The notes beneath the pieces were generated by a model, which did no database searches, was not told the DNA's origin, and saw only the letters and a program-made list of their open reading frames with translations. Of a DNA stretch of 64,000 bases, positions 23,329-39,337 are shown in pieces. How positions within the stretch are numbered: position 1 is the first letter of the stretch; every line of letters begins with the position of its first letter. The position numbers and the translations under genes are program-made. Origin of the DNA: an uncultured Anaerolineaceae bacterium (GTDB lineage Bacteria > Chloroflexota > Anaerolineae > Anaerolineales > UBA11579); assembly GCA_964572455.1 (NCBI GenBank), contig CAZNFL010000004.1, positions 3,970 through 67,969 of the forward strand, in the 5' to 3' direction.

Positions 23329-24477
23329 ATGTACACGCGTGAACAACTAGAAGCCCACGAGGACCAGATCCTGGCGCCTTATGGCATGCGCAGCCGCGAG
23401 AGCAAAGGCCGCGCTTACCCCGACAAGGAACCCAAACAGCGCACGCGCTTCCAACGCGATCGTGACCGTATCCTGCACACTTCCGCGTTCCGCCGCCTGG
23501 AATACAAGACGCAAGTCTTCATAAACTTTGAGGGCGATTACTTCCGCACACGGCTGACCCACACCCTGGAGGTCACCCAGATCGGGCGCTCGATCGCCCG
23601 CGCCCTGGGCGCCAACGAAGACCTGGTGGAGGCTGTGTGCCTGGCGCATGACTTGGGGCACGCCGCCTTCGGCCACTCGGGCGAGATGACCCTGAACAAG
23701 CTGATGGAAGGCCACGGCGGCTTTGACCACAACCGCCAATCCTTGCGCATCCTCACGGAGCTGGAGCAGCGCTATCCCAATTTCCCGGGGCTCAACCTAA
23801 CCTGGGAGGTGCGCGAAGGCATCGTCAAGCACGAGACGGAATACGATGTGTCCGACGCCTCAGCCTACGAACCGGAATTGCGCGGCAACCTGGAAGCGCA
23901 GATCGCCAACTCCGCCGACGAGCTCGCTTACACCACACACGACCTGGACGACGGCTTGCGCTCCGGCATGATCACGCCTCCAGATCTGGCCCAGTTGGAA
24001 ATGTGGCAATTACTGGTCGAAAGTGTTGGCTGGGACGGGCAGCGGCTGGACGACCTGACCCGCCACCGGTTGATCCGCCGGCTGATCGGCCTGTTGGTGG
24101 CTGACGTGGTTGAGGCCACCGACAAGCGCATCCAGGCCAGCAAGGCGAAGAGCGCGCTGGACTTGCAGAAACTGGATCACAACGTGATCGGTTACAGCGA
24201 AGACATCCAGCGCCGCAACCGGCAGCTGAAGGATTTCCTGTTCAGGAATTTATACAACCACCCGCGGGTGGTACGCATGGCGGTAAAAGCGGAAGGCGTA
24301 ATCTCGGACATCTTCGAGGCCTACATCAATGCCCCATCCATGCTGCCCTACGATTTCCAGGAGCTTATAAAAGAACGCGGCCTAGAGCGCACGGTGTGCG
24401 ATTATTTGGCGGGCATGACCGATCGTTACGCCATCCAGGAATACGGAAAACTTTTCGACCCGCACAGCCTGCCATGA
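23329..24477 (+). CDS. dgt: dGTP triphosphohydrolase-like HD-domain protein
   Basis: 382 aa. RDRDRILHTSAFRRL, RLTHTLEV and AHDLGHAAFGH. Possible promoter TTGACA 23291-23296 / TAGACT 23314-23319. Confidence 0.85.
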   Translation: MYTREQLEAHEDQILAPYGMRSRESKGRAYPDKEPKQRTRFQRDRDRILHTSAFRRLEYKTQVFINFEGDYFRTRLTHTLEVTQIGRSIARALGANEDLVEAVCLAHDLGHAAFGHSGEMTLNKLMEGHGGFDHNRQSLRILTELEQRYPNFPGLNLTWEVREGIVKHETEYDVSDASAYEPELRGNLEAQIANSADELAYTTHDLDDGLRSGMITPPDLAQLEMWQLLVESVGWDGQRLDDLTRHRLIRRLIGLLVADVVEATDKRIQASKAKSALDLQKLDHNVIGYSEDIQRRNRQLKDFLFRNLYNHPRVVRMAVKAEGVISDIFEAYINAPSMLPYDFQELIKERGLERTVCDYLAGMTDRYAIQEYGKLFDPHSLP

Positions 24478-24944
24478 GCCACCAGGAGTATTACCTCACC
24501 GCGGAAGGCGCCGAGCGCCTGCGCAAAGAGCTGGCCGAGCTCAAGGGGCCGCGGCGCACCGAACTGGCCCAGCGGCTGCGCACCGCCATCCAGCAGGGCG
24601 ACCTTTCGGAGAACGCCGATTACTCCAAGGCCAAGGAAGACCAGGCCTTCCTCGAGGGCCGCATCCAGGAATTGGAAACCTTGCTGAGCCGGGCTGAAAT
24701 TATTTCGGCGAGCGGATCCCCGACCGGGGTGATCGGGCTTGGGTCCGTGGTCCTAATCCGCGAGAAAGGCCGCGAGCCGGTGAAATATTTCCTGGTAGGC
24801 GCACAGGAAGCTGACCCGCGCAACGGCCGCATCTCACACGAGTCGCCCATCGGGCGGGTGCTGATCGGCCACAAAGCAGGCGAGACGGTGAAAGCGCAAA
24901 CGCCTGCGGGGGAATTAAGTTTCGAGATCGTTGAAGTTGAGTAA
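24474..24944 (+). CDS. greA: transcription elongation factor GreA
   Basis: 156 aa from ATG 24474 (ATGA overlap with the dgt stop). YLTAEGAERLRKEL...GDLSENADYSKAKE. Confidence 0.9.
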   Translation: MSHQEYYLTAEGAERLRKELAELKGPRRTELAQRLRTAIQQGDLSENADYSKAKEDQAFLEGRIQELETLLSRAEIISASGSPTGVIGLGSVVLIREKGREPVKYFLVGAQEADPRNGRISHESPIGRVLIGHKAGETVKAQTPAGELSFEIVEVE

Positions 24945-24946
24945 AT

Positions 24947-25010
24947 CCCTAATCAATTAATCCAATAATCGGTTAATCGATTAGCTGATTAACCGATTAG
25001 CTGATTGATT
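24947..25010. repeat. tandem array of palindromic octamer GATTAATC (8 phased units)
   Basis: CCCTAATC AATTAATC CAATAATC GGTTAATC GATTAGCT GATTAACC GATTAGCT GATTGATT. It fills the whole gap between the convergent stops of greA (24944) and 25011(-). Confidence 0.8.
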
Positions 25011-26048
25011 TTATATCTTAGACCAGACCGCCAACTCGAGCGTGGCGCGCTCGAAGAAGCTGTCTTCCGGCATCGGCCCTTCGCCATATTGCATGTCTAC
25101 CACGCGGGCCACCATTTGCAAGGTGGCCGTCTCAAGCACCATCTCCACGCCCGGCCTGGCCAGCACGGGCTCGCCCTTGGCGGAGAGCCGCTCGCGGGCG
25201 GCATCATCGCGGAAGAGATGGTTGCTCATCAGCACCTTGGTCACGGTCTGGATATCGTTCTTATCGAACAGCCAGATCTCGAAGGCGGAGACGCGTTTGG
25301 GGTTGCCCACGCCGATGGTCTCGGCGATGCTGACGCCGCATTCGCCCATGAACTCGCCGGCCGGCGAGTCGATGCTGTAGGAATCGTCGTACAGGTCGTC
25401 GCCTTGGACGTAATTGGTCATCCATTGGGAGAGCGGCGGAGAATCCGCTCCCGCGCCGGGTTCGGCCAACTCGGTTTGCTGGGCGGCCGCGCGGGTCTTG
25501 AGGATGCCGGGGCGCAGTTCGTCGCCTTGGCGGCTGCGCACAATATAGAGCACACCTAACACCAGGCCGATCACCAGGGTAATGCCGCACAGGGTGGTGA
25601 GGAGAGTCCCTGTGCTGAAAATCGATCCGTCGCCTTCCGCGGGAGCTGGCGCGTCATCGACAGGCGGGGCTGTGCCGCCAAGCAAGGCCTGGAAGCGGGC
25701 AATGGTTTCCACGCTTTGTACCCCGGGCGCGGATGCTACCGCCGCCATGGTCTCGTCCACCCGCGCGCCTAGGGCGGCCAGGCGCTGGCGGGCCAGCGTG
25801 TCGTCGGGGCGCTGGGTGTAGGAGTCGACCGCGGCGCGCAAGTAATCGGCGCGCAGGGCCGGGCTCAGCTCGGCGGCGGAGGCATTCTCCCAGTCCACAG
25901 GGAACAGCCACCAGCCCAGCACCACCAAGCCGACGATCAGGCCGCCCACAAAGGCAGCAATGGCCAGCGTGCGCGGCTCGCTCAGGGAGGCGAGATTTAG
26001 GTTCTTCGGCAAGGAGAGGCGCGGCTTGGTTTGGCCCGTAGGTTCCAT
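25011..26048 (-). CDS. two-TM membrane protein, function unknown
   Basis: 345 aa from ATG 26048 (AGGAG 6 nt upstream). TM helices at about aa 30-55 and about aa 170-195. Conserved-looking C-terminal soluble domain. The track extension to 26270 runs through the RNA motif. Confidence 0.6.
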   Translation of the reverse strand: MEPTGQTKPRLSLPKNLNLASLSEPRTLAIAAFVGGLIVGLVVLGWWLFPVDWENASAAELSPALRADYLRAAVDSYTQRPDDTLARQRLAALGARVDETMAAVASAPGVQSVETIARFQALLGGTAPPVDDAPAPAEGDGSIFSTGTLLTTLCGITLVIGLVLGVLYIVRSRQGDELRPGILKTRAAAQQTELAEPGAGADSPPLSQWMTNYVQGDDLYDDSYSIDSPAGEFMGECGVSIAETIGVGNPKRVSAFEIWLFDKNDIQTVTKVLMSNHLFRDDAARERLSAKGEPVLARPGVEMVLETATLQMVARVVDMQYGEGPMPEDSFFERATLELAVWSKI

Positions 26049-26107
26049 CAATACTCCTAGTTGGTCATTGTAGATGAGCGGCTGTAAATGCGCAACTTTT
26101 GAGCCGT

Positions 26108-26163
26108 GCGATTGCTTCGCAATCGCCCGAGAACCTACTCGGCGTTGCCGAGTAACGATTCTC
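26108..26163 (+). ncRNA. candidate structured RNA motif, copy 1 (hairpin + nested hairpin)
   Basis: GCGATTGC-ttc-GCAATCGC, then GAGAA-cc-TACTCGGC-gtt-GCCGAGTA-acga-TTCTC. About 140 nt upstream of ATG 26304. Strand is inferred from the position of copy 2. Confidence 0.4.
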
Positions 26164-26303
26164 CAACGGATGTTCGTGCTGAAGCACAACCTCCATTCTC
26201 CAATAAGAGCTGACGAAAAAGTAGGGCGTGGGTTATTCGTCTTTCCGAAGGCCGCCTGGGATAAAATCAAGCCGGTCTGCTCTCCTGAGCAGCAAAAGTC
26301 CAG

Positions 26304-28439
26304 ATGCCCGAACCCAGTGTCCTAGACTACCTTAAGGCCTTGCTTTCGTTTGGGCGCAGGCGACTTCCTTCTGTCCCGACGTTGCCGAAAACGGCGACGA
26401 AGGCTGCGCGGCCTGCGCAGCCGCGGGCCGCGGCGAGGTCGGCGGCTCGCAAGCCTCGTTCGCTGGTCTCCCTTCCCTGGCGCAGCGGCCTGGCGCTCTT
26501 GCTCTTCTTCAGCGCGCAATTATTTTGGCTGCCGCCGCATTCCTCCTGGCAGATTGGGGTCCTCGCCATGCTGGCGGGGGTGGTTTTAGCAGTCTTTGCG
26601 GCGCGGCATGGGGAATGGCGGCTGCCTCAGATCGAACCCATAAAGATAGACAGGAAGAATCTACACTTTAGGCGTTTGCCGCTGGGGCTCGGGCTACTGT
26701 GTTTTGCGCTAACCCTCCTTTTTTCCGGTGACAATCGTTTTACCGGATTGAATATCTTTTTCTGGGTGCTCAGCCTTGGTTTCGTCCTGGCTGCCTTTTG
26801 GCAGTTCGATCAGAGCCCACGGGCGACCTGGAAAAAGTTCAGAACCGGTGTACAGCGGCGCGACTGGCTTTTACACGTCTCGCGCTGGACCCTGGTGTTG
26901 CTGGCCGTCTTCGCCATCATCGCCTTCTTCCGCTTCTCGCAACTGGAAACCCTACCGGCGGAGATGAACAGCGATCATGCCGAGAAGTTGCTGGATATGA
27001 GCGATATCTTCGCGGGCCAGACTTCCATCTTCTTCGAGCGCAACACGGGCCGCGAACCCCTCCAGTTCTATGTGACCGCGGCCGTGGCGGGAATTTTGGA
27101 TACTGGCATTTCCTTTTTAAGCTTGAAGATCGGTACTGTCCTTCTGGCTTTCATGTCCCTCATTTATATGTACTTGCTGGGCAGGGAATTTGGCGGGCGC
27201 TGGGTGGGCTTGTTTGCGTTGCTCTTGGTCGGCATGGCCTTTTGGCCCAATCTGTTGGCGCGCACCGGACTGCGCTTCTCGTTGTATACCACCTTTGCTG
27301 CGCCGACGTTGTATTATCTGCTGCGCGGCCTGCGGCGCAGCCACCTGAATGACTTCCTGTTGTGCGGCGTATTCATGGGCATCGGGCTCAACGGCTACTC
27401 GGCTTTTCGCATCGTGCCGATAGTGGCCGGCGTGGCGCTGTTGCTATCCTTGTGGCATACGCCCAGCCCAGAACTTCGCCGGCGCGGGCTGATCGGCTTT
27501 GCCCTGCTGGCGCTGGTGGCTTTGGTCGTCTGTGCTCCCTTGCTGCGCTACGCTGTCGAGCACCCCAGCGCGTTCAGCGAGCGCATGTTTACGCGCATAT
27601 TTGAAACCGAGCGGCCTTACCCTGCGCCCGTGTTGATCACCCTCGCCAGCAATGTTGGAAGCGGCCTGGCGATGTTTAACTTCTCCGGCGGCCGGATCTG
27701 GCTGGTGGGGATAGAAGATGCCCCGGCCTTTGACCTGATCTCAGCCGGGTTGCTGCTGCTGGGCGCCGTGCTGGCTATCCTGCGGTATGCACGCAACCGT
27801 TCCTGGCTCGATCTTTTCCTGCTGCTCTCGATCCCGCTGCTCATGCTGCCATCCACGCTCTCGTTAGCGTTCCCTGAAGAGAACCCGGCGATGAACCGGG
27901 CCAGCGGCGCTTGGATCCCGGCTTTCATCCTGTGCGCACTGGGGCTGGATGCTTTCCTGCACGGCTTGCGCGATAGGCTGGGTGATAAACTCGGTTTGCA
28001 CGTCGCGCAGGTGAGCGGCGCTCTGATCTTCTTGTTTGCCGCACTGCTCAACTACAACTTGTTCTTCCATAGTTATGTTAATCAATACGATAACTCTTCC
28101 TGGAACACATCCGAACTCGGGAAAGTCATCGCCGATTATGCCGGCAGCTTCGGCAGCTACGACAGCGCCTGGGTGGTGGCCTATGCCCATTGGGTGGATA
28201 CGCGCCTGGTCGGTATGAATGCCGGCAACACCACCCGCGATTACGGCATCTGGCCGGACCAGTTGAGCACGACATTGGCCATACCCGCGCCTAAGCTGTT
28301 CCTGGTGAAGATCGATGATCAACTCGGACTGGAAACATTAAAGCAGCTGTATCCGGAAGGGTTGATCAGCAACAAGCCCAGCCGCCTGCCGGGCAAAGAA
28401 TTCATCACCTTTTTTGTGCCTGAACAGCCCAACCCCTAA
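26304..28439 (+). CDS. polytopic GT-C-like (PMT/ArnT-type) membrane protein
   Basis: 711 aa. Basic Ala/Pro/Arg-rich N-tail followed by more than 10 hydrophobic helices. Acidic loop motif LPAEMNSDHAEKLLDMSD. C-terminal soluble domain. Confidence 0.55.
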   Translation: MPEPSVLDYLKALLSFGRRRLPSVPTLPKTATKAARPAQPRAAARSAARKPRSLVSLPWRSGLALLLFFSAQLFWLPPHSSWQIGVLAMLAGVVLAVFAARHGEWRLPQIEPIKIDRKNLHFRRLPLGLGLLCFALTLLFSGDNRFTGLNIFFWVLSLGFVLAAFWQFDQSPRATWKKFRTGVQRRDWLLHVSRWTLVLLAVFAIIAFFRFSQLETLPAEMNSDHAEKLLDMSDIFAGQTSIFFERNTGREPLQFYVTAAVAGILDTGISFLSLKIGTVLLAFMSLIYMYLLGREFGGRWVGLFALLLVGMAFWPNLLARTGLRFSLYTTFAAPTLYYLLRGLRRSHLNDFLLCGVFMGIGLNGYSAFRIVPIVAGVALLLSLWHTPSPELRRRGLIGFALLALVALVVCAPLLRYAVEHPSAFSERMFTRIFETERPYPAPVLITLASNVGSGLAMFNFSGGRIWLVGIEDAPAFDLISAGLLLLGAVLAILRYARNRSWLDLFLLLSIPLLMLPSTLSLAFPEENPAMNRASGAWIPAFILCALGLDAFLHGLRDRLGDKLGLHVAQVSGALIFLFAALLNYNLFFHSYVNQYDNSSWNTSELGKVIADYAGSFGSYDSAWVVAYAHWVDTRLVGMNAGNTTRDYGIWPDQLSTTLAIPAPKLFLVKIDDQLGLETLKQLYPEGLISNKPSRLPGKEFITFFVPEQPNP

Positions 28440-28441
28440 TC

Positions 28442-31400
28442 ATGCCAAAGACTCAACGTACTTCAACCCATTCGTGGATCAATAACGTTCTGTTTGTGCT
28501 GGTCCTGCTGGCGGCTGCCTACCTGCGCCTGGTGGGAATTGATTGGGACGAGGACCAGCATCTGCATCCCGACGAACGCTTCCTCACCGGCGTAGTGGCC
28601 AGCCTGGAGTCAGTGGACGGGTTGGGCGAATATTTCGACACGGCCAACTCCACCCTCAATCCTAACAACCGCGGCGCCGGGTTCTTCGTCTATGGAACCT
28701 TGCCGGTCTTCATGGTGCGCTACGTGGCCGAAGCGGTCGGCAGCACCGGTTACGACCAGATCCATTTGGTTGGACGAGCCCTCTCTGCCCTGGCCGACCT
28801 GGGCGTGGTGGCTCTGGTGTATTTCATTGGCTCGCGCCTGGTGGATAAGCGCGTCGGTTTGCTTGCCGCAGTTTTCTCGGCCTTCGCCGTGATGCAGATC
28901 CAGGAGTCCCATTTTTGGACTGTGGACAATTTCGTCAACTTCTTCACCTTGCTGGCCTTATTTTTCGCCATCCGCATAGCTAGCTATGGTTCGCGGCCTA
29001 AAGAAAAGGGCGCATTCACCCCTTGGGATCTTGTGGGCTTCGGCCTCGCGCTCGGGTTTGCGTTGGCCTCCAAGGTCAGCGTAGCCCCGCTGGCGCTAAC
29101 CTTGCCGGCCGCGGTGATCGTGCGCCTGCTGGCCTTGCCACGTGAGCAACGCGCCGCCCACATTTCTTCTTCGTTTTGGTGGATGTTGCTTGCCGCCGGC
29201 CTGAGCGCACTAACCTTTCGTGTCTTTCAGCCTTACGCTTTTCAAGGAGTGGGGCTGGGAGGCTGGCTGAGCAACATCGGGGCGTCCTGGCAAGCCTCTG
29301 AAGGCCTCGTCATATTCGACCGGCTCAAGCAGTTAATCATCGCAATCCTGGGCTTGAACCCGCATTGGGTGGACACCATGTCTTCCCTCGCTGCCCAGGT
29401 GAGCGGGGACGCCGACTGGCCGCCTTCCATGCAATGGGCGCGGCGGCCACTGTGGTTCGGGCTGCAAAATATCGTCCAATGGGGCTTGGGATGGCCGCTG
29501 GCGCTGGTCTGCCTGGCCGGCTTGGCTTGGGCTGGCTGGCGCATTTACAAAGGCGAATGGCGCAATCCCGCGGTTATTTTGTGGGGGTGGGGCGCCTTCT
29601 ATTTCCTGTGGCAGTCCTCTGCCTTTAACCCTACCATGCGTTATTTCCTGCCCTTCTATCCTGTGCTGGTTATTTTCGGCGCGTGGGCGGTCATCAGTTT
29701 ATGGGATGCCGGCGCAGCGCGCCCCAAACCGCGCGGTAAGAAGGGATTTCAGTGGCCGGCCTGGGCCCGCCCGGCGGCCGGAGTGCTGGGCGCGGTTACA
29801 GTCCTCGGCGCAGGGCTGTGGGCCTGGGCTTTCGTGCAGATCTACCAACAGGATGTTTCCCGCTTGGAAGCAACGCGCTGGATCTACCAGAATTTGCCTG
29901 GTCCGATCACGATGACTTTTGAAAAAGATGGTGGGGAGGTCAACCAGCCCTTGCCTTTATCCTATGGTCAGGTGATTAGCCCGGAAACGCCGCTCTTTAT
30001 AACTTACTTTCCAAAGGAAGAGGGGCAGCTCACCCAGATCACGCTTAAGCACGTGCTGGCCCCGGTCCAGTTGGAAATCCGCAACTGGGCTGCGGGCGAA
30101 ACGGTCTTGACTCATTTGAACCAGATCGTCGACCTGGAAAACATGCAGCTAGGGCAGGTGAACGAGATTGCCTTCGAAATCCCTACTGACCTGCTCATCG
30201 ATCCGACTGCCCAATACCAATTGCTGCTGCAGTTGCCGGCTGGTCGCGGCCAGCTGCAGGTAAACGGCGTGGAATTGCGTAACTCCCAGATTCCCGGCGT
30301 GCCCGGCAATCCACTGCTCCTCGAACCAGCGCCTGTGCGCATGGGAGAGACTTTGTCTCTGGCGTTTACCAATACCTTGAGCGTGGTCGCTGACCGGCTG
30401 TTCATCCGGTTAACCCCAAGCGAAGCGCTTTCGGTCGATTCCATCAACGCCCGGTTCACCCTCAGCAACGCCGAGAGCGGCCTGCTTGTGGAGCAAGGTT
30501 TGAAGTTGGATGTTTCCACTGACAGAGGCGCGCTGGGTAGCGAGCAGGTGATCGCGCTGCCCGCGCCGATCGCTTTGCAACCCGACCGACCATTAACACT
30601 GCAGCTTTCCGTCGCATCAGGCGCGCTGACTCTGCTGGGCACGACGATGGCGAATGAGACCAGCTGGGATGACGGCCTGCCGCGGCGCATGGATGGCTAT
30701 GATGGATTTGGTGGCATCTATCAGGGCGATCTGAATTTTGAGATGTACTGGGACTCCGACGCGGCCAAGTTGGCGCGCTTCCTGGATATTCTCGACCGCG
30801 CCGAATACATTTTCATCAGCTCCAATCGCCAGTGGGGCAGCCTGCCGCGCCTGCCGGAACGCTTCCCACTGGTGACCGCTTATTACCGCTCCCTCATCGG
30901 CTGCCCCGAAGGCGAATCCATCGAATCCTGTTTTATCAATGCCCAGGTCGATAATACTCACAGCGATTACGGCTTTGAGCTGATCCAGGTTTTCGAGAAC
31001 GCACCTCAGCTTGGCCCGTGGACGATAAATGACCAGGGCGCCGAAGAAGCTTTCACCGTCTACGACAATCCCAAGGTATTCATCTTCCGCAAGACGGCAG
31101 ATTTCGACGCTGAGAAGTGGGCGGCAACCCTCTCTCAAGTTGATTTAACCAAAGTGATCCACCTCACTCCCAAACAGGCCGCAGGCGGAATGCTGCCGAA
31201 CTTGCAGCTGCCCGCGGAACGGTTGGAAGCCCAGCGCGCCGGCGGCACCTGGTCGGAGTTGTTCGATACTGAATCCTGGATCAATATCTCCCCTTGGGTC
31301 AGCGCCCTAGTCTGGTATTTGGCCCTAGCTGCGCTGGGCTTGGCGGTTTATCCCCTGGTGCGCTGGGCTCTGCCCGGCCTCAAGGATGGCGGCTATCCCT

Positions 31401-33715
31401 TTGCGCGTCTGGTGGGCTTGCTATTGCTCTCCTATCTGGCCTGGATGGGAGGCTCGCTGGGGCTGGCCTTCAGCCGCGGCTGGCTGGCAGCCTTTGCGCT
31501 GCTGTTGCTGCTGGCTGGCGGCGCGGCAGCCTGGTTCCATCGCGACGAGCTGCAGCGCGAATGGAAAACCAAACGTGCGATCTTCCTGCGCACTGAGGTG
31601 CTTTTCCTAGCTTTCTTCCTATTGATGTTGGTAATCCGCATCGCCAATCCCGACCTGTGGCATCCGGCATTCGGCGGCGAGAAGCCCATGGACTTTTCCT
31701 ATTTCAATGCGGTGCTCAAGAGCACCAGCTTCCCGCCTTATGACCCTTGGTTTGCCGGCGGATATATCAACTATTACTACTACGGCTTTGTGTTGGTCGG
31801 CTCGCTGGTCAAGCTGTTGGGCATCGTACCGGCGGTGGCCTACAACCTAATCCTGCCATCCCTATTCGCCATGCTGGCGCTCGGCGCCCACAGCGTTGCC
31901 TGGAATCTTTGGACAGCTTGGAAAGCGCGCGAAGGAAAGGCTACGCGCATCTCGCCGGAGATAGTCGGCCTGACCGCAGCCGTTGCCGTGCTGATCCTGG
32001 GCAACCTGGGCAGCATCGATCTGCTCCTTGTCTCCTACGCCAAGATGGGCGCAGAGGGCGCCTACAGTCCCGACAGCGGCTTTCTCACCCAATGGGGGTG
32101 GATTCTGCGGGGCTTTATTATGTCGCTTAGTGGCCAACCCTTCCAGATCGGCCGCGGCGATTGGTATTGGAATCCCACCCGCATAATTCCAGCCCCGGGC
32201 GAAACCGGGCCGATCTCGGAATTTCCCATATTCACATTCACCTATGCAGACCTGCATGCCCACATGATCGCCCTGCCGGTGACTGTGTTGGGACTGGCCT
32301 GGTCGCTGTCGGCCATCCTCAGCCGGGCCTGGTCCGGCCTTAAAAATAAAGGCCAGGTGGCTGCCTCGTTAATTTTAGGCGCCATCATCTTGGGCAGCCT
32401 GCGACCGATTAATACCTGGGACCTGCCCACTTATTTGCTGCTGGCTATGTTGGCGGTGGGCTACGCCTTATGGCGCTATGGCCCGAAGGTCAAGGGGGGG
32501 CGTGGGAAGCCGCGCCCGACCTGGCAGCTGGCGCTGCGCGGAATGGCTGCGCTGGGTATCTTAAGTGTGCTTGCCTATCAACCTTTTGCTAGTTGGTACC
32601 GGCAGGGTTATTCCAGCATTGAACTTTGGACCGGCACGCATACTCCAACCAGTCCTTACCTGATGCACTGGGGCATTTTCCTGTTCTTCATTATTGCTTG
32701 GCTGGTTTGGGAAACGCGCCAATGGATGGCCGTCACTCCGCTGTCCTCCATTCGAAGGCTGGAGAAATATAGTTATCTGCTCATCGCTGCTGGGACTTTT
32801 TTCTTCTTCGCCTGGTTTTTGCTGTTTGGCCTGGGTGTTCACGTTGCTTGGTTTCTCTTTCCCCTTCTGCTTTGGGTCGGTCTGCTCTTCCTTCGCCCCG
32901 GGGTGGATGAAGCCAAGCGACTGGTCCTATTCCTGATCGGCACGGGTCTCTTCCTTACTTTGATGGTCGAGGTGATCCGCCTGCAGGGCGATATCTCCCG
33001 CATGAACACCGTATTCAAGTTCTACTTGCAAGCCTGGGTGCTGCTGGGCATCGCAGCGGCCTTTGCCCTAGCCTGGACTCTGGACGGATTGCGCCATTGG
33101 CTGCCAGCCTGGCGCGGGGCATGGTCAACGGTCGCGGTGTTCCTACTAGGCTTTGGCGCGCTCTTCATACTGCAGGGCGTCACCGCCAAGGCCGGCGATC
33201 GCATGGTGGCCGAAGCGCCGCACACGCTGGACGGCATGGCTTATATGCAATATGCGGTTTATTTCGATCGGGACCGGGCGCTGAACCTAAGCCAGGATTA
33301 CGCCTCCATCCGCTGGATGCAAGAGACCGTTCAGGGTTCGCCGGTGATCGTTGAGGCGAACACCGGCGAATATCGTTGGGGTTCGCGCTTCACTATTTAC
33401 ACGGGCTTGCCCTCTGTCGTGGGCTGGAACTGGCACCAGCGCCAGCAGCGCGAGTTCGTGCCGGGCAATGATGTTCAAGGGCGGGTGAACGAGATTGAGG
33501 CTTTCTATCTTTCCTTCGACCTAAACTTGGTGCGCGACTTTTTGCAAAAATACCAGGTGAAATACATTATCGTGGGCCAACTGGAACGCGCCTATTACCC
33601 GGGCGCGGAGTTGGATAAGTTCGAGGCGCAAGACGGTGTGCTGTGGCAAGAGGTGTACCGCCTCAACGACACTGTGATCTACGAAGTGCTTGACACCACC
33701 TTAGCCGGGGATTGA
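28442..33715 (+). CDS. giant membrane protein: GT-C-like N-module + large non-hydrophobic central domain + Chlor_Arch_YYY (DUF2298) module
   Basis: 1757 aa. N-module loop motif DWDEDQHLHPDERF. About 450-aa hydrophilic region. C-module GEKPMDFSYFNAVLKS...PPYDPWFAGGYINYYYYGF. Confidence 0.75.
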   Translation: MPKTQRTSTHSWINNVLFVLVLLAAAYLRLVGIDWDEDQHLHPDERFLTGVVASLESVDGLGEYFDTANSTLNPNNRGAGFFVYGTLPVFMVRYVAEAVGSTGYDQIHLVGRALSALADLGVVALVYFIGSRLVDKRVGLLAAVFSAFAVMQIQESHFWTVDNFVNFFTLLALFFAIRIASYGSRPKEKGAFTPWDLVGFGLALGFALASKVSVAPLALTLPAAVIVRLLALPREQRAAHISSSFWWMLLAAGLSALTFRVFQPYAFQGVGLGGWLSNIGASWQASEGLVIFDRLKQLIIAILGLNPHWVDTMSSLAAQVSGDADWPPSMQWARRPLWFGLQNIVQWGLGWPLALVCLAGLAWAGWRIYKGEWRNPAVILWGWGAFYFLWQSSAFNPTMRYFLPFYPVLVIFGAWAVISLWDAGAARPKPRGKKGFQWPAWARPAAGVLGAVTVLGAGLWAWAFVQIYQQDVSRLEATRWIYQNLPGPITMTFEKDGGEVNQPLPLSYGQVISPETPLFITYFPKEEGQLTQITLKHVLAPVQLEIRNWAAGETVLTHLNQIVDLENMQLGQVNEIAFEIPTDLLIDPTAQYQLLLQLPAGRGQLQVNGVELRNSQIPGVPGNPLLLEPAPVRMGETLSLAFTNTLSVVADRLFIRLTPSEALSVDSINARFTLSNAESGLLVEQGLKLDVSTDRGALGSEQVIALPAPIALQPDRPLTLQLSVASGALTLLGTTMANETSWDDGLPRRMDGYDGFGGIYQGDLNFEMYWDSDAAKLARFLDILDRAEYIFISSNRQWGSLPRLPERFPLVTAYYRSLIGCPEGESIESCFINAQVDNTHSDYGFELIQVFENAPQLGPWTINDQGAEEAFTVYDNPKVFIFRKTADFDAEKWAATLSQVDLTKVIHLTPKQAAGGMLPNLQLPAERLEAQRAGGTWSELFDTESWINISPWVSALVWYLALAALGLAVYPLVRWALPGLKDGGYPFARLVGLLLLSYLAWMGGSLGLAFSRGWLAAFALLLLLAGGAAAWFHRDELQREWKTKRAIFLRTEVLFLAFFLLMLVIRIANPDLWHPAFGGEKPMDFSYFNAVLKSTSFPPYDPWFAGGYINYYYYGFVLVGSLVKLLGIVPAVAYNLILPSLFAMLALGAHSVAWNLWTAWKAREGKATRISPEIVGLTAAVAVLILGNLGSIDLLLVSYAKMGAEGAYSPDSGFLTQWGWILRGFIMSLSGQPFQIGRGDWYWNPTRIIPAPGETGPISEFPIFTFTYADLHAHMIALPVTVLGLAWSLSAILSRAWSGLKNKGQVAASLILGAIILGSLRPINTWDLPTYLLLAMLAVGYALWRYGPKVKGGRGKPRPTWQLALRGMAALGILSVLAYQPFASWYRQGYSSIELWTGTHTPTSPYLMHWGIFLFFIIAWLVWETRQWMAVTPLSSIRRLEKYSYLLIAAGTFFFFAWFLLFGLGVHVAWFLFPLLLWVGLLFLRPGVDEAKRLVLFLIGTGLFLTLMVEVIRLQGDISRMNTVFKFYLQAWVLLGIAAAFALAWTLDGLRHWLPAWRGAWSTVAVFLLGFGALFILQGVTAKAGDRMVAEAPHTLDGMAYMQYAVYFDRDRALNLSQDYASIRWMQETVQGSPVIVEANTGEYRWGSRFTIYTGLPSVVGWNWHQRQQREFVPGNDVQGRVNEIEAFYLSFDLNLVRDFLQKYQVKYIIVGQLERAYYPGAELDKFEAQDGVLWQEVYRLNDTVIYEVLDTTLAGD

Positions 33716-36144
33716 TGGACCAACTGCTGGCCACGGTCCTCTGGTATCTGCTGGTGGCCAGCTTCGGCTGGCTCAGCTTTCCGATCGCCTATCGCTTCCT
33801 AAAGGCTCTTCCGGACCGCGGCTACGCATTTGCGCGTGCGCTGGGCCTGCTGCTGTGGGGCTTCATCTTCTGGACGCTCAGCAGCTATGGGCTGCTGCAA
33901 AATAATCCGGGCGGCCTGATCACCGCCGCCGTGCTGCTGGCTGCGCTCAGTTGGTGGGCCTGGCGCCAGCTGCCTCCCGGTGAGCTGCGCGCCTGGCTGC
34001 GTGCTCATCGCTCCCTGGTGGTCGCCATGGAACAGGTCGTTTTGGTGGCCTTTGTCTTCATGGCCTTCGTGCGCTTCTCTCGCCCCGAGATCTTTCACAC
34101 CGAGCAGCCCATGGAGTTGGCTTTCATCAACGCCATCCTGCGCTCGCCTTCCATGCCGCCGCACGACCCTTGGCTGGCTGGCTTTTCCATCTCTTATTAT
34201 TACTTCGGCTATTTGCTGGTGGCCATGCTGGCCAAGTTGGTAGGGGTCACTGGCTCGATCGCCTTCAATCTGGGCTTCATCACCATCTTTGCTTCTGCAG
34301 CCTTGGGCGCGTACGGGTTTGCCTATAACCTGCTTTCACTTTACAAACCCAAAGCCCAACGCGCCCTGTTGCGGCTGGCCTGCCTGGCTCCGCTATTTGT
34401 CTTGGTGCTGGGCAATGGGGAGGGCCTGCTGGAGTTGGCCCACGCTCGGCATGCGTTTTGGAGCGCGGATCCTGCCGGCGCGCAGACCTCGGGTTTCTGG
34501 ACCTGGTTGGACGTCGAGGACCTGACTAATCCGCCAAGCGCCGAACCCAGATGGACGCCGCGCAACTACGGCACCGGTTTTTGGTGGTGGTGGCGGGCTT
34601 CGCGGGTCATCAATGATCAGACCTTCAGCGGCGGTGACCAGGAATTGATCGACGAGATCCCCGCCTTTTCGTTCACCCTGGGGGACCTTCATCCCCACGT
34701 GTTATCCATGCCCTTCATTATGTTGGCGGTGGGCCTGGCTCTGAATGTCTATCTTGGAGGCGCCGAGCGCAAAGAGCCGCTGCGATTCTTCAAGCTCAGG
34801 ATCGAGCCGGAGTTTTTACTGTTTGCGACTATTGTCCTTGGCGCCCTGGCCTTCCTGAACATTTGGGACTTTCCTATCTATGTGGGCTTGTTCGCACTGG
34901 CCTATGTTTTGCGCAACGCTCAGCAGGCGGGCTGGTCTTGGGAACGCGGCTTTGAGTTGGTTCGCCTGGCGCTTCTTCTATTAATTGGCGGTGTGCTGCT
35001 CTACCTGCCTTTCTATGTGGGATTCACCTCTCAGGCGGGAGGCATTCTGCCAAATTTGCTCAACCCCTCGCGCGGCGTTCACCTGTGGATCATGTTCGCC
35101 ACCTTGTGGATACCGCTCTTTGCCTATTTGCTTTTCTTGTGGCGCCGCGAGGCGACCTGGTCTCGCCTCCTGACCAATATTCTCTTTGGGCTGGGTTTCG
35201 TGGCCGGACTGTGGCTGGTTTCGCTGCTGATCTCCTGGGTGTATGCCACGTTGTTTGCGGGCGGCGCGCTGGGGCAGGCCCTGTCTAGCTTGGGGGCGGC
35301 TGATCTTGGCAACCTGCTCGCGGTCTCCGTCAGCCGCCGGCTGGCGGCCGCCGGCGGCTGGCTGACCTTGAGCATCCTCTTGGGAGTCGCCTTCGGCCTA
35401 TTAGTCAAACCTGCCGCAAAAAAGGAAGCAGGCACTGCACCGTTTGCAGCGCGTACCTTCGTGATCCTGCTCGTGTTTTTGGGCGCCCTGCTGGTCACTG
35501 CGCCGGAATTCGTCTATCTGCGCGACCAGTTTGGCACGCGCATGAACACAGTCTTCAAGTTTTACTTTCAGGCCTGGCAGCTTTGGGCTGTCGCTGCGGC
35601 TGTGGCTTCGGTGATGTTGTTGCAAGAATTGCGCAGTTGGGGCCGCGTCCTGTTTGCCGTGCTGCTGAGCTTGATGTTGGCCACGGGTCTCATTTATCCA
35701 TTCTTCTCCTTTTCGGATATCACCGGCAATCCTGTGGGCAGCCTGGACGGCGCCAGCTACCTCTCGCCCGAAGTGGTCCAGGGCATCCAGTGGCTGCAGC
35801 AAGCGCCGCTCGGCACGCTGGTGGAAGCCGTCGGTGGCAGCTATGACGCCAACTTTGCGCGCTACTCTACCCACAGCGGGCAGCCCGGCTTGATGGGCTG
35901 GCCCGGTCACGAAGGCCAGTGGCGCGCCGGCAACGTGGATTGGGCGCGCATCGATGATATTCAAGTGCTTTTTTCGGCAGCCGATTGGCAGACCGCGCAG
36001 GTCATCCTGGATAAATACGACGTCAGGTACCTGGTCGTGGGCGAGTGGGAGAGAAACAGTTACCTGGTTTCTGAGAGCCTGTTTGCCGAAAACTTGATCG
36101 TTGCCTTTCAAAATCCCAGCGTGACCATTTACCAAGTCCCGTAG
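33715..36144 (+). CDS. Chlor_Arch_YYY (DUF2298) family membrane protein
   Basis: About 809 aa. EQPMELAFINAILRS...PPHDPWLAGFSISYYYFGY. ATG 33715 (or TTG 33712) overlaps the upstream TGA at 33713-33715. Confidence 0.75.
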   Translation: MDQLLATVLWYLLVASFGWLSFPIAYRFLKALPDRGYAFARALGLLLWGFIFWTLSSYGLLQNNPGGLITAAVLLAALSWWAWRQLPPGELRAWLRAHRSLVVAMEQVVLVAFVFMAFVRFSRPEIFHTEQPMELAFINAILRSPSMPPHDPWLAGFSISYYYFGYLLVAMLAKLVGVTGSIAFNLGFITIFASAALGAYGFAYNLLSLYKPKAQRALLRLACLAPLFVLVLGNGEGLLELAHARHAFWSADPAGAQTSGFWTWLDVEDLTNPPSAEPRWTPRNYGTGFWWWWRASRVINDQTFSGGDQELIDEIPAFSFTLGDLHPHVLSMPFIMLAVGLALNVYLGGAERKEPLRFFKLRIEPEFLLFATIVLGALAFLNIWDFPIYVGLFALAYVLRNAQQAGWSWERGFELVRLALLLLIGGVLLYLPFYVGFTSQAGGILPNLLNPSRGVHLWIMFATLWIPLFAYLLFLWRREATWSRLLTNILFGLGFVAGLWLVSLLISWVYATLFAGGALGQALSSLGAADLGNLLAVSVSRRLAAAGGWLTLSILLGVAFGLLVKPAAKKEAGTAPFAARTFVILLVFLGALLVTAPEFVYLRDQFGTRMNTVFKFYFQAWQLWAVAAAVASVMLLQELRSWGRVLFAVLLSLMLATGLIYPFFSFSDITGNPVGSLDGASYLSPEVVQGIQWLQQAPLGTLVEAVGGSYDANFARYSTHSGQPGLMGWPGHEGQWRAGNVDWARIDDIQVLFSAADWQTAQVILDKYDVRYLVVGEWERNSYLVSESLFAENLIVAFQNPSVTIYQVP

Positions 36145-36199
36145 CGTTGCTTTGCAACGCTGGGAGAAATCTACTCGCCGAAGGCGAGTAACGATTCTC
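36143..36199 (+). ncRNA. candidate structured RNA motif, copy 2
   Basis: AGCGTTGC-ttt-GCAACGCT, then GAGAA-atc-TACTCGCC-gaa-GGCGAGTA-acga-TTCTC. Begins within the stop codon of the upstream gene. Compensatory changes relative to copy 1. Confidence 0.4.
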
Positions 36200-36242
36200 C
36201 AGCCTGATTTATTCCTCAAGCGCAAAACCCGCTCGACTATAA

Positions 36243-37952
36243 TTGATGGTAGCCATGGCGCAACCATCCCTATTAAGTCGCGAATACTTCTTCTATTCTC
36301 TAATTATCCTGCTCGCCCTAGCCTTGCGATTCGCCAGCCTGGGTGGGCCTCCACTAAACGAATTCGAAGCCTCAGCCGCCTTGCCCGCCTCTGATTTGGC
36401 ATCCGGCGGCCAGCCCGCCCTCGGTGAGCAACCCGCCTACGTACTGCTGACCAGCTTGCTCTTTGGTCTCTTTGGCAGCAGCGAATTCCTGGCTCGCTTT
36501 TGGCCGGCCTTGTTTGGGCTGGCGCTGGTGGCGCTTCCATATTTCTGGCGTGATCTGCTGGGCAAAAAAGTTGCTCTGCTGTTGGTTTTCTTTCTGGCGA
36601 TCGACCCGGGCTTGGTGGCCGTCTCGCGCCTGGCTGCGGGTTACATGCTGGCGCTGTCTGCCGCCCTGATGGCCCTGACGGCCTGGCGCTATCGCCGCCC
36701 GGTCTTAGCCGGCTCGCTTGCCGGTTTGGCCTTGCTGTCTGCCCCAACGGCCTATTTCGGGCTGGGCGCGGCTGCTCTAGTCTGGGTCAGGCTAAGGAAA
36801 GCTATCCGTGTAGATAGGGCGGCGTTGCGCTCCGCGGCCCTGGCTGCATTGGTAGTTTTGCTATTGGGGGGCACCTTGCTGTTCAATGTGCCCCAGGGAT
36901 TAGCTGGCGCTGGCCAGGCCCTCGCCTCCTTTTTTTTCGGCGCCCCAAACTTCCCGGGGTCAAGTCTAAGCTTGACCTTATTTGCCCTGCTAGGCTATTC
37001 CCTGCCCGCGCTGATCTTTGGCGGCCTCGGCGCCTGGCGCAGCTGGAGGCTGGGCGAACCTTTGGGCAAAGCGCTCTCCCTGTTTGCCGCCTATGCTTTC
37101 TTGCTTGTTTTGATCAATCCAAACCGCCAGGTGGCCGATCTTTTGTGGGTCCTGCTGCCCCTTTGGGTTTTGGCAGCCCAGGTGGTCAGCATCTATTTGC
37201 GTACGCCTGAAGACGAACCGGTGGCTGCCGTTGGCCAGGCTGCCTTGATGCTTTTGCTGGCCGCCTTTTTGGTGCCCACCCTGGCGCGCATCGCCGATAC
37301 GGGATTTTTGCTGGTCCCAGCTCCGGACACCCCGCTGCCGGTCATTTCGTCTCACGGAGTGATCGCCCTCTTTGTCTTGGGCATCGCCGGCCTGGCCACC
37401 GCGCTGATCGCCCTAGGCTGGTCGCGCCGGGCCGCCGCCCAGGGGTTGGTGTGGGCTTTGGCGCTAGTCTTTGTGTTGTTCCTATTGTCTGCTAGCAGCC
37501 GGTTTTCTCGCTTGGAGACCGCGGCCGCCAACGAGTTGTGGTCGCCCGGCCTTGCCGCCGGGCAACTGGGCATTCTGCGCGAAACTCTGGCCGACCTGTC
37601 CTTCTGGGATCAAAGGCAGCCTGCGGCCATCTCCATTGAGTTGCGCAGCGAAAGCGCTGCCTTGCGCTGGGCTTTGCGCGATTTTCAGGTGGCCTCCAGT
37701 TCTGCACCTCCGGCCGTTGCGATCACGACCGGCGTGGGCGAGACCCCCGCCGAATTTGTGACCTATCGGGGCCAGAGTTTCGCCCTCAGCGTCCAACGCA
37801 CCTGGGAGAGCTGGCCCCCCAACTTCTTTGCTTGGCTGTTGTTTCGCCAGGCGCCCACGCAAAGCCAGCAACTCATTCTGTGGGCGAATGCCGATTTGTT
37901 TGCGGATGCCGCCTCTTTTGATCAAAGTTCTCCCGAGGGCGAGACACCCTAG
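36243..37952 (+). CDS. polytopic GT-C-like membrane protein
   Basis: About 565 aa (TTG 36243, ATG 36246 or ATG 36255). LRFASLGGPPLNEFEASA first-loop motif. More than 10 hydrophobic helices. C-terminal soluble domain. Confidence 0.55.
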   Translation: MMVAMAQPSLLSREYFFYSLIILLALALRFASLGGPPLNEFEASAALPASDLASGGQPALGEQPAYVLLTSLLFGLFGSSEFLARFWPALFGLALVALPYFWRDLLGKKVALLLVFFLAIDPGLVAVSRLAAGYMLALSAALMALTAWRYRRPVLAGSLAGLALLSAPTAYFGLGAAALVWVRLRKAIRVDRAALRSAALAALVVLLLGGTLLFNVPQGLAGAGQALASFFFGAPNFPGSSLSLTLFALLGYSLPALIFGGLGAWRSWRLGEPLGKALSLFAAYAFLLVLINPNRQVADLLWVLLPLWVLAAQVVSIYLRTPEDEPVAAVGQAALMLLLAAFLVPTLARIADTGFLLVPAPDTPLPVISSHGVIALFVLGIAGLATALIALGWSRRAAAQGLVWALALVFVLFLLSASSRFSRLETAAANELWSPGLAAGQLGILRETLADLSFWDQRQPAAISIELRSESAALRWALRDFQVASSSAPPAVAITTGVGETPAEFVTYRGQSFALSVQRTWESWPPNFFAWLLFRQAPTQSQQLILWANADLFADAASFDQSSPEGETP

Positions 37953-37960
37953 ATTCCGCG

Positions 37961-39337
37961 ATGGCCAAACCACGTACGATCGCCATCGACGGCCCGGCGG
38001 CCTCCGGAAAGTCCACTCTGGCTCAGGCGCTGGCGCAGCGCCTGGGATTTTTATATTTTGATACGGGCGCCATGTATCGCGCCGTCACCCTGGCCGCGTT
38101 GCGCCGCGGCTTGGACTTGATGGACGAAGCCGCGCTGGCGAAAGTGGCCCACGAGGTGGAGATCGACCTGCGTCCCGCCAGCCAGGCGGACGGCCGCCTC
38201 AGCGATGTCTTCCTTGACGGGGAGGACGTCACCTGGGCCATCCGCTCGAAGGAAGTGGATGCGGCGGTGTCCGCGGTATCCGCGTTCCCTTCGGTGCGCC
38301 GCGCCCTCACCGAACTGCAGCAGCGCATCGGGCAGCGCGGCGCGGTGGTGATGGCCGGCCGCGACATCGGCACGGTGGTGTTGCCGGAGGCGGATCTCAA
38401 GATCTTTTTGGATGCTTCACTGGAAGAGCGCGCCAAGCGCCGCCATGCCGAATTGACGGAACGCGGCGAAGCGCTGCTCTATGACCAGATCTTGCAGTCG
38501 TTGCGTGAACGCGACCAGATCGATTCCAATCGCGAAGTGGCTCCATTGCGCCCGGCGGACGACGCCGTCTTATTGAAAACTGACGGCGTGGGAAGAGAAC
38601 AGGTCTTGGATCAAGTGCTTGGCTTGGTGCGCATGGTAGAGCAGGGAGGTTCCCAATCAGCCACCCGGCCACCTTATAAGGTTCCTTTTAAAAACCAGCT
38701 CTTCCGCGCCCTGCTTGCTTCCCCGGTGCGTTTCCTGGTTCGCCTCCTGTTCCGCTTACGCATTGTGGGTTTTGAGAACGTTCCGAAAAACGGCGCTTAT
38801 ATCATCGCCTATAACCATGTTTCACTGTTTGAACCGCCTTTGCTGCTCGCCTTTTGGCCGGTCTTCCCCGAACCAGTGGCTGGCGCGGATACTTTTGAGC
38901 GCGATGCGCTTAAATTTTTTGTGCGCGGCTACGGGGCACTAGCTGTACGCCGCGGAGAATATGATCGTAAGATCATCGACGATTGCCTCTGGGTGCTGGA
39001 TTCCCAAAAACCTTTGATGATCGCCCCTGAAGGCGGACGCAGCCACAAGCCTGGCCTGCGCCAGGCGAAGGCCGGCGTGGCTTATCTCATGGATCGCGCT
39101 CGCGTGCCCGTGTTGCCGGTGGGCGTCAACGGCACCAGCGACCATATGCTCAAGCCTGCCTTGCGCGGCAAGCGCCCCCCCATAGAAATTCGTATCGGCA
39201 AGCCCTTCGTTCTGCCGCCCATCGAAGGCCGCGGCGAGGACCGCCGCGCCGCCCGCCAGACAAATGCCGACCTGGTCATGCGCCATATTGCCGCCGTCCT
39301 GCCCCCGGAATATTGGGGCGAATACCAGCCCATCTAG
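37961..39337 (+). CDS. cmk: bifunctional cytidylate kinase / 1-acyl-sn-glycerol-3-phosphate acyltransferase fusion
   Basis: 458 aa. N-half IAIDGPAASGKST...DTGAMYR. C-half AYNHVSLFEP (HX4E) and APEGGRS (PlsC blocks). Confidence 0.85.
   Translation: MAKPRTIAIDGPAASGKSTLAQALAQRLGFLYFDTGAMYRAVTLAALRRGLDLMDEAALAKVAHEVEIDLRPASQADGRLSDVFLDGEDVTWAIRSKEVDAAVSAVSAFPSVRRALTELQQRIGQRGAVVMAGRDIGTVVLPEADLKIFLDASLEERAKRRHAELTERGEALLYDQILQSLRERDQIDSNREVAPLRPADDAVLLKTDGVGREQVLDQVLGLVRMVEQGGSQSATRPPYKVPFKNQLFRALLASPVRFLVRLLFRLRIVGFENVPKNGAYIIAYNHVSLFEPPLLLAFWPVFPEPVAGADTFERDALKFFVRGYGALAVRRGEYDRKIIDDCLWVLDSQKPLMIAPEGGRSHKPGLRQAKAGVAYLMDRARVPVLPVGVNGTSDHMLKPALRGKRPPIEIRIGKPFVLPPIEGRGEDRRAARQTNADLVMRHIAAVLPPEYWGEYQPI

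Follow-up and report, generated by a model that had tools for sequence, protein, structure and literature searches.

The known systems closest to the proteins reported here are glycosyltransferases of the GT-C fold. In the GT-CA type, which is defined by transmembrane (TM) helices 1-7 with two juxtamembrane helices between TM1 and TM2, the catalytic carboxylate lies at the tip of the first juxtamembrane helix (PMC12041299), and DPY19 uses a Glu at that position (PMC10154233). A C-terminal domain termed the luminal dome is common to DPY19, the oligosaccharyltransferases (OSTs), and the Emb and Aft enzymes (PMC10154233). In gene content, the nearest comparisons are the mycobacterial arabinogalactan (AG) and lipoarabinomannan (LAM) genes (Rv3806c, Emb, Aft, Mpt, PimE) and the three-component pentofuranose systems, which consist of a synthase with a PRP phosphatase domain, a MATE flippase and a GT-C of family GT136 (PMC11127046). 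Known systems use polyprenyl-phosphate pentose donors made by a UbiA/DPPRS-type synthase (PMC11127046). The subject of this study is a run of four genes, g1 to g4, in a 64,000-nucleotide stretch of contig CAZNFL010000004.1 from an uncultured Anaerolineaceae bacterium (this whole stretch is referred to as the window). The best explanation of the data, favored here with moderate confidence, is that these genes encode five outward-acting GT-C modules that build an envelope glycopolymer or lipoglycan. Two of the modules would be of the PMT_2 type (g1 and the N-terminal part of g2), two of the DUF2298 type (the C-terminal part of g2 and g3), and one would be ArnT/ALG-like (g4).

The four open reading frames (ORFs) are co-directional and have the positions, lengths and junctions that the first-pass annotation had assigned to them, and all seven peptide motifs quoted there are present at the expected places. 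The genes and modules are as follows.

26304-28439, + strand: g1, 711 aa, a PMT_2-type GT-C membrane protein (from ORF, Pfam and TM scan)
28442-29851, + strand: g2 N-terminal module (residues 1-470), PMT/PMT_2-type GT-C with HPDE in the first outer loop
29837-31306, + strand: g2 middle region (about residues 466-955), non-membrane, presumably extracytoplasmic, matching no known family
31295-33715, + strand: g2 C-terminal module (about residues 952-1757), a complete DUF2298/TIGR03662 module
33712-36144, + strand: g3, 810 aa (809 aa from the ATG at 33715), a stand-alone DUF2298/TIGR03662 protein
36243-37952, + strand: g4, 569 aa, no Pfam family, predicted GT-C fold

The g2 ORF as a whole runs from 28442 to 33715 on the + strand (1757 aa), and the four products together amount to 3847 aa. 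A 2-nt gap separates g1 from g2, g2 and g3 overlap by 4 nt (1 nt if the ATG start of g3 is used), and 98 nt lie between g3 and g4. A hydropathy scan placed about 12, 23, 16 and 14 TM segments in g1 to g4, about 65 in all. The same scan showed that an earlier description of the proteins as almost purely membrane protein was overstated, because it found a non-membrane stretch of 489 aa in the middle of g2 (residues 466-954) and C-terminal non-membrane stretches of 130-175 aa in each protein. The coding strand over g1-g4 is T-rich, with an AT skew of -0.10 to -0.32, as is expected of membrane-protein genes.

The assignment to GT-C was made from AlphaFold2 (AF2) models and Foldseek for g3 and g4, and from Pfam alone for g1 and the N-terminal module of g2. 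The fold proposed in the first-pass annotation was recovered, in that the g3 and g4 models match only GT-C enzymes at significant Foldseek E-values and the other two modules pass the PMT_2 or PMT models. The acidic loop residues that it had singled out were also found to be conserved, with E131 of g3, E1080 of g2, D224 of g1 and E42 of g4 invariant and D44-E45 of g2 conserved at 90% or more. The claim that every module carries its acidic motif directly after the first TM helix was correct for the g2 N-terminal module and for g4 but not for g1, the g2 DUF2298 module and g3. In these three the motif follows the fourth helix, since their GT-C core is preceded by three additional helices at the N-terminus.

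Two of the proteins had been recognized as carrying the YYY/DUF2298 signature, and g2 and g3 both exceed the cut-offs of TIGR03662 and PF10060. The TIGR03662 scores are 537.3 bits for g2 (residues 952-1749) and 462.7 bits for g3 against a curated cut-off of 300.25 bits, with both proteins covering positions 2-726 of the 727 in the model, and the PF10060 scores are 392 bits (E = 5.7e-117) and 360 bits (E = 3.7e-107), respectively. The YYYxG motif takes the form YYYYG at residues 1111-1115 of g2 and YYYFG at residues 162-166 of g3. The family is large, with 6683 clusters at 50% identity at E ≤ 0.001 and 2306 at E ≤ 1e-30. Papers on a "YYY domain" were considered as a source on its function and set aside, as they concern the unrelated Y_Y_Y domain and not DUF2298.

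The AF2 model of g3, made with a 58-sequence alignment as input, has a pLDDT of 93.4 and a pTM of 0.93. It shows 16 TM helices with both termini outside and a C-terminal extracytoplasmic α/β domain. When the model was compared with the PDB by Foldseek, 5 matches were found at E ≤ 0.001 and all were GT-C enzymes (DPY19 and AftA), the best being DPY19 at 4.9e-6 and AftA at 1.3e-5 with TM-scores of 0.40/0.51. The next structural relatives were PglB, AftB, Pmt1/2 and EmbC. The C-terminal domain resembles the C-terminal globular domain of AglB (3vu0; Foldseek probability 1.0, E about 0.08), which fits the luminal dome of DPY19, OST, Emb and Aft enzymes. The predicted fold of g3 resembles that of AftA, but there is no Pfam match to the Arabinose_trans/AftA families.

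The g3 model also suggests where the active site would be. A TM helix at residues 100-123 is followed by two outer-loop helices at 132-144 and 165-177, and the residue at the N-terminal tip of the former is E131. It shows no variation among 58 sequences, the paralogous g2 module included, nor among 38 sequences taken from the divergent representatives of 50%-identity clusters, at 33-38% identity. Other invariant residues of g3 are W154, Y162, Y163, G166, D325, H327, H329, N383, W385, D386, R610, N612 and K616, and D152 is conserved at 90% or more. In the C-terminal module of g2, E1080 and Y1111-Y1113 are invariant, and D1101, D1270, H1272, H1274, R1520, N1522 and K1526 are at least 90% conserved. 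With loops assigned from the helices of the g3 model, 16 Lys or Arg residues fall in the 64 residues of the inside loops against 8 in the 137 residues of the outside loops. This bias places E131, D152, D325, H327, H329, R610, N612, K616 and the C-terminal domain on the outside. In this model E131 is a candidate catalytic carboxylate, facing outward at the GT-CA position, while D325, H327 and H329 may bind a metal and R610 and K616 may bind phosphate.

The DUF2298 module shares with DPY19 (7zli) and AftA (8if8) a predicted GT-CA-type core, a first outer loop that is long and contains two juxtamembrane helices, the leading one tipped by a carboxylate (Glu, as in DPY19), candidate phosphate-binding Arg/Lys residues and an outer α/β dome. 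It differs from them in having no detectable sequence or profile similarity to either, in TM-scores of only 0.34-0.51, in the three extra N-terminal helices that bring g3 to 16 TM helices in total, and in its own signature residues PPxDPW, YYYxG, DLHxH and RMNTxFKFY. Placement of DUF2298 in GT-C may already be visible in Pfam/InterPro. The possibility that DUF2298 proteins are STT3-type OSTs was considered and found to be unsupported, as the WWD motif and an STT3 match are both lacking.

The fourth protein, g4, has no Pfam match. Its AF2 model (pLDDT 92.8, pTM 0.91) includes a β-rich C-terminal domain of about 150 aa and gave 11 significant Foldseek matches in the PDB, all of them GT-C proteins: ArnT, ALG9, ALG12, STT3 and AglB. 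ArnT was the best match at 2.1e-7 (TM-scores 0.51/0.53), followed by ALG9 at 8e-6 and ALG12 at 2e-5, and further structural matches were Emb, Pmt4, PimE and also PIG-U. R29, E42 and R85 are invariant, and E42 is in the first turn of the helix formed by residues 40-53. A positive-inside pattern was not clear from the manual list of g4 helices. In comparison with ArnT (5f15/5ezm) and ALG9/ALG12 (9s6s, 9s6t), g4 has a predicted GT-C fold at TM-scores of 0.50-0.61, a first-loop helix with an invariant carboxylate and a size near that of ArnT. It differs in having no Pfam or sequence match to them, in the β-rich C-terminal domain, and in carrying NEFE instead of DE/DxD.

A family-level match of g4 was obtained with TIGR03663, the Agl23 model, at 43.2 bits (E = 2.6e-11) over residues 20-328, below the cut-off of 126.25 bits. 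The similarity to Agl23 of Haloarcula hispanica is thus significant over about 300 residues and sub-threshold, and it joins a bacterial protein to an archaeal one. The HGP tripeptide, a signature of the TIGR03663 family, is absent from g4. Genes of TIGR03663 often lie beside genes of TIGR03662 according to the TIGRFAMs descriptions, and g4 is placed likewise. The identification of g4 as an Agl23 orthologue was rejected because its score is below the cut-off of the profile hidden Markov model, and it is considered a distant relative only.

Detectable sequence similarity to established GT-C families is confined to g1 and the N-terminal module of g2, through Pfam. The g1 protein passes PMT_2 at 35.7 bits (cut-off 26.1) over residues 252-414 and has no NCBIfam family match. 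Its N-terminus is basic and cytoplasmic, about 12 TM segments follow, and a soluble domain of 130 aa forms the C-terminus. Among 43 orthologues D224 is invariant and S223, E227, D231, R250 and E251 are at least 90% conserved, which includes the SDxAE motif. When residues 1-470 of g2 were scanned separately, PMT was passed at 30.4 bits (cut-off 22.7) and PMT_2 at 28.8 bits (cut-off 26.1); R29 is invariant in 53 orthologues, and H42, P43, D44 and E45 are at least 90% conserved. This region has about 1062 homologues, and most of those among the matches listed are proteins of 1600-1660 aa that carry PMT/PMT_2 (PF02366/PF13231) together with DUF2298. The SDxAE of g1 and the HPDE of g2 give these modules an acidic pair after the first helix of the core, as in the PMT/PMT_2 (GT39/GT83-type) enzymes. 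The Pfam scores of the two modules are low (29-36 bits) and cover about 150 residues. The g2-type proteins of 1600-1750 aa are natural fusions of two different GT-C modules, and the joining of a PMT-type module to a domain of about 490 aa and a DUF2298 module is an architecture not described among characterized PMT/ArnT enzymes.

The middle region of g2 has no TM segment. Its last 250 or so residues are conserved, with D743, K776, E869, Y874, D875 and K884 among the invariant positions, and residues of about 540-700 vary among homologues. No Pfam match and no PDB profile match was found for this region, and scanning the soluble regions in isolation (the g2 middle region and the four C-terminal domains) likewise gave no Pfam match. 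At its start (26304-26345) g1 encodes a short conserved cytoplasmic peptide, (E)PSVLDYLK, followed by a very basic segment. The same peptide opens the g1-type gene in locus L061 (2081-2494), which supports the annotated start of g1, and there are hints that it could be an interaction motif.

The genes that flank g1-g4 in the window are listed below.

20639-21541, + strand: UbiA protein of the DPPR-synthase type (NF008978, 240.8 bits, cut-off 207; NF008977, 234.1 bits, cut-off 234)
21543-22484, + strand: mevalonate kinase (TIGR00549, 265 bits)
22489-23280, + strand: isopentenyl phosphate kinase (NF040647, 164 bits)
25011-26048, - strand: divergent two-TM protein of no known family
37961-39337, + strand: cmk-plsC fusion, CMP kinase plus a domain of the 1-acylglycerol-3-phosphate acyltransferase type (Pfam, NCBIfam, synteny)
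39341-42595, + strand: sensor histidine kinase, dCache-HAMP-GAF-PAS (Pfam, synteny)

As had been noted from the sequence, the same strand continues from g4 into cmk-plsC after an 8-nt gap and from there into the sensor kinase after a 3-nt gap. The next gene is rpoC (42886-47175), which thus follows the sensor kinase and not rpoB, and this kinase-rpoC adjacency recurs in relatives. Promoter and terminator scans between 24.5 and 43 kb gave sites that were not above those in shuffled sequence, except for a perfect sigma-70-type site, TTGACA-16-TATAAT at 42624-42651, which lies after the sensor kinase and 235 nt before rpoC. Rfam at the gathering threshold and a tRNA scan returned zero matches in the window.

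The order of the four genes is kept across the class Anaerolineae. With the fold and the acidic residues recovered as described above, all three lines of refutation that the first-pass annotation had named were followed, and its proposal withstood them. One genome per species was scanned and at least 525 DUF2298 loci were found. The best 80 of these at least 525 loci carry Chloroflexota names consistent with Anaerolineae (Anaerolineales, Thermoflexales, Caldilineales and Ardenticatenaceae), except L022, whose record bears a Nitrosomonadaceae name. The best hits place the bacterium studied here in the Anaerolineales, phylum Chloroflexota. In the 83 loci that were analyzed by tblastn and ORF analysis, a complete fused g2-type ORF is present in 53, each followed by a separate DUF2298 ORF, and g2-g3-g4 occur in order in 41, most of the others being truncated contigs. 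A lone DUF2298 gene or another arrangement was seen in L015, L029, L069, L072, L076 and L081. The longer order g1-g2-g3-g4-cmk-plsC-kinase-rpoC recurs down to about 40% identity. Locus L003 (6698-9528; 47% identity) has two IS110-family transposase genes between its g2- and g3-type genes and no g4-type gene after them, which indicates that the cluster can be broken.

In relatives the gene directly 5' of g1 encodes a SAM methyltransferase in 34 loci, 7-27 nt away, with a GT4 glycosyltransferase in 31 loci and an NAD-dependent epimerase/dehydratase in at least 12, a count limited by the length of flank. The wider order begins with isopentenyl phosphate kinase (IPK), mevalonate kinase (MVK) and UbiA on the opposite strand, then TlyA, sometimes a major facilitator superfamily protein, LepA and a PF03706 membrane protein. 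It continues with the epimerase, GT4, the methyltransferase, g1-g4, cmk, 1-3 plsC-type genes, the kinase and rpoC. One g2-anchored locus is without the upstream set. The g1-g4 set is therefore kept in fixed order class-wide, and the conserved unit exceeds four genes, since in relatives it opens with PF03706, the epimerase, GT4 and the methyltransferase, and it is likely to extend into cmk-plsC and the kinase.

In the window this gene order is rearranged. When its positions 19806-26303 are compared with L084, L086, L087, L088 and L089, the block of TlyA and UbiA-MVK-IPK is inverted, and a dGTPase, GreA and the two-TM protein stand in front of g1 instead of the relatives' genes, which were lost through the rearrangement. 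The first-pass annotation had placed a DPPR-synthase-like prenyltransferase about 5 kb upstream. This gene is 4.8 kb upstream of g1, and its product, 300 aa without an extra domain, scores above the cut-offs of two NCBIfam equivalog models for decaprenyl-phosphate phosphoribosyltransferase. Directly after it come the genes for MVK and for IPK, which provide precursors of isoprenoids, IPK being an enzyme of the alternative mevalonate route. The UbiA gene lies beside TlyA in three of the four relatives whose flank reaches that far (L084, L086 and L087), and in L086 the whole UbiA-MVK-IPK trio does so. UbiA is a candidate for the enzyme that makes a polyprenyl-phosphate pentose donor.

Taken as a pathway, the favored explanation would run as follows. 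The candidate catalytic carboxylates and the soluble dome domains would face the outside of the cytoplasmic membrane, where an envelope glycopolymer or lipoglycan would be lengthened step by step with sugars that the modules would draw from polyprenyl-phosphate(-diphosphate) carriers. This logic is like that of the Emb/Aft/Mpt/PimE series, which makes mycobacterial AG and LAM. In relatives the epimerase/dehydratase, GT4, methyltransferase and PF03706 membrane protein may provide the cytoplasmic start of the pathway, and UbiA with the mevalonate and isopentenyl phosphate kinases could supply a polyprenyl-phosphate-pentose donor. The glycosyltransferase activity, the type of donor, the acceptor and the envelope polymer as product are all putative, as is the polymerase/ligase label given in the first-pass annotation, and the indications of a lipid-linked donor are circumstantial, namely the conserved Arg, Lys and His residues on the outer face and the nearby UbiA of the DPPR-synthase type.

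The mycobacterial AG/LAM genes are similar to this locus in that several large GT-Cs stand together with a UbiA of the DPPR-synthase type nearby, and the neighborhood in relatives has GT4 and PlsC-type genes, as mycobacteria have the GT4 enzymes PimA/PimB and the acyltransferase PatA. They differ in phylum and in GT-C families, no DprE1/E2 was found among the window ORFs scanned, and the UbiA gene is set apart from the cluster here by housekeeping genes. This likeness is an analogy of gene content and not a homology of pathways. Compared with the three-component pentofuranose systems, the window has a UbiA/DPPRS-type enzyme but without an extra domain, no MATE protein among the ORFs scanned, and GT-Cs of other families, and the two may share a general logic.

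Several observations weigh against the favored explanation. No function has been assigned to DUF2298/TIGR03662 in the literature searched. Searches of PDB sequences with all four proteins by phmmer found nothing relevant, and profile searches of the PDB with DUF2298, g4 and the g2 middle domain found only a spurious match to LMBD1 (E = 4.6e-4), so that the case for the fold in DUF2298 and g4 comes from predicted structures only, with Foldseek TM-scores for the g3 and g4 models that are moderate (0.34-0.53). Comparison by hhalign among the g2 N-terminal module, DUF2298 and g4 showed no similarity (1-3% probability), so that sequence gives no ground for relating these three module types to one another. 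A GT-C fold does not by itself make a protein a transferase, as PIG-U among the structural matches of g4 illustrates, and flipping of lipid-linked glycans is reported for Agl23, to which g4 is distantly related (PMC11182771). The epimerase, GT4, methyltransferase, LepA and PF03706 protein are missing from the whole 64-kb window, so the upstream cytoplasmic genes are lacking here, and a GT2 polyprenyl-phosphate-sugar synthase, a MATE flippase and DprE1/E2 were not found among the window ORFs scanned. Finally, cmk, plsC and rpoC are housekeeping genes whose adjacency may say nothing about function.

Some of the same evidence could be read as protein glycosylation, with the PMT_2-type modules O-glycosylating secreted or S-layer proteins in the manner of bacterial PMTs and the DUF2298 modules acting like OSTs in the en bloc transfer of a glycan from a lipid diphosphate. 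The PMT/PMT_2 matches of g1 and the g2 N-terminal module with their conserved DE-type motif are compatible with this, as are the resemblance of g3 to the peptide-acting DPY19 and PglB and of its C-terminal domain to that of AglB (3vu0), and the invariant D325-x-H327-x-H329 looks like a metal site of the kind used with diphosphate donors. However, AftA, which has a lipid-linked glycan as acceptor, matches g3 equally to DPY19 and exceeds it in TM-score, lipid and glycan modifiers such as ArnT also belong to PMT_2, and the dome, being common to OSTs, Emb and Aft, gives no indication of a protein acceptor (PMC10154233). In addition, the WWDxG/WWD motif is absent from all four proteins, Pfam STT3 is not matched, and the archaeal STT3 model TIGR04154 is reached at 20.9 bits against a cut-off of 450. 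Protein glycosylation is therefore considered unlikely. It is less likely still that one or more modules, most plausibly g4, serve as a translocator or scaffold for polyprenyl-phosphate-linked sugars, as Agl23 does. The TIGR03663 hit is the sole family-level match of g4 and carries the description "flippase activity-associated protein Agl23" (E = 2.6e-11), in liposomes a lipid-linked oligosaccharide is flipped by purified Haloarcula Agl23 (PMC11182771), the window ORFs scanned contain no other flippase candidate, and non-catalytic GT-C-fold proteins exist, PIG-U being one of the g4 matches. Yet a score of 43 bits against 126 excludes g4 from the Agl23 orthologues, the structures that it matches best belong to active transferases, and the invariant E42 in the first loop helix, together with R29 and R85, is as expected of an active GT-C. 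Moreover, the separate PF03706 membrane protein of relatives could be the translocator.

The least probable of the alternatives, regarded here as quite improbable, is an ArnT- or Gtr-like decoration of membrane lipids, peptidoglycan or a teichoic-acid-like polymer with single sugars, controlled by the adjacent sensor kinase. It would agree with the best match of g4 being ArnT, which modifies lipid A, with the ArnT-type enzymes included in PMT_2, and with the neighboring lipid genes cmk and plsC and a sensor kinase resembling WalK/PhoR. In the three-component systems, too, a DPPRS-type synthase and one GT-C serve to attach pentofuranoses singly (PMC11127046). However, those known systems consist of one GT-C with a synthase and a flippase (PMC11127046), and neither a MATE protein nor a PRP phosphatase domain was found here. 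Five distinct GT-C modules in a fixed class-wide order exceed what decoration needs. Stepwise assembly of an envelope glycopolymer or lipoglycan is the explanation retained.

Some further features of the window were recorded. A two-hairpin element of about 60 nt occurs on the + strand at 26108-26165, 139 nt before g1, and at 36148-36201 in the g3-g4 gap, with the 3' consensus GGGAGAAaTCTACTCGGCtnCGCCGAGTAACGATTCTCCA and a folding z-score of about -4.7 for each copy. Other copies, full-length ones among them, are found in L101 (62-216), L105 (632-700), L100 (1447-1516) and L103 (590-660), some in tandem 90 nt apart, and on other metagenome contigs the element adjoins unrelated genes for a rhomboid protease, a proteasome subunit and a DUF5666 protein. 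Over seven distinct copies 90.9% of cells pair, and 9 pairs are changed on both sides. The element has no Rfam match and is absent from the cluster loci of relatives. A role as an operon-specific riboregulator was rejected because the same element stands beside unrelated genes on unrelated contigs, and it looks like a dispersed structured intergenic repeat resembling repetitive extragenic palindromes. Intergenic AT-rich arrays with an 8-nt period and ATTAATCG-like units lie at 3144-3188, 13293-13345 and 24940-25008. The array that follows greA is additionally scored as a long AT-rich hairpin ending in a T tail, and the arrays may serve as terminators or as sites of protein binding. A second family of intergenic repeats, which is not related to the two-hairpin element, has copies of 92 nt at 911-1002 and 57850-57941 (80% identity), and a 30-nt palindrome beginning GTAGGGACAGGTnTAnAnACCTGTCC is present at 55798-55827 and 61728-61757 (87% identity). 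Three paralogous genes for LysM and M23 peptidase proteins of about 505-526 aa lie on the minus strand at 7502-9082, 13355-14929 and 14930-16447. Two of them are adjacent, stretches of their DNA are 66-74% identical, and the products are probably peptidoglycan hydrolases.

Filamentous Chloroflexota lack outer-membrane markers, and their envelope contains layers whose composition is unknown (PMC13319060), which makes a class-wide GT-C cluster a useful genetic handle. GT-C enzymes as such are already known. What is new is a family with three extra helices and its own motifs, a fusion of two GT-Cs and a cluster of five modules. The stronger proposal, that DUF2298 founds a new and very large GT-C family and that the cluster builds the "inner" or "outer" envelope layers of Chloroflexota, is doubtful at present. 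The placement of DUF2298 in GT-C, with its candidate Glu and phosphate- and metal-binding residues, nevertheless gives a specific hypothesis for biochemical work and names the residues to mutate, and the g2 fusion could show how consecutive extracytoplasmic glycosylation steps are coupled. Under the stronger proposal, polyprenyl-phosphate sugars would be built outside the membrane into a wall glycopolymer or lipoglycan with a housekeeping role, and the donors may include pentofuranoses supplied through the neighboring enzyme of the DPPR-synthase type. The system would then be a Chloroflexota counterpart of mycobacterial arabinogalactan and LAM assembly that evolved independently.

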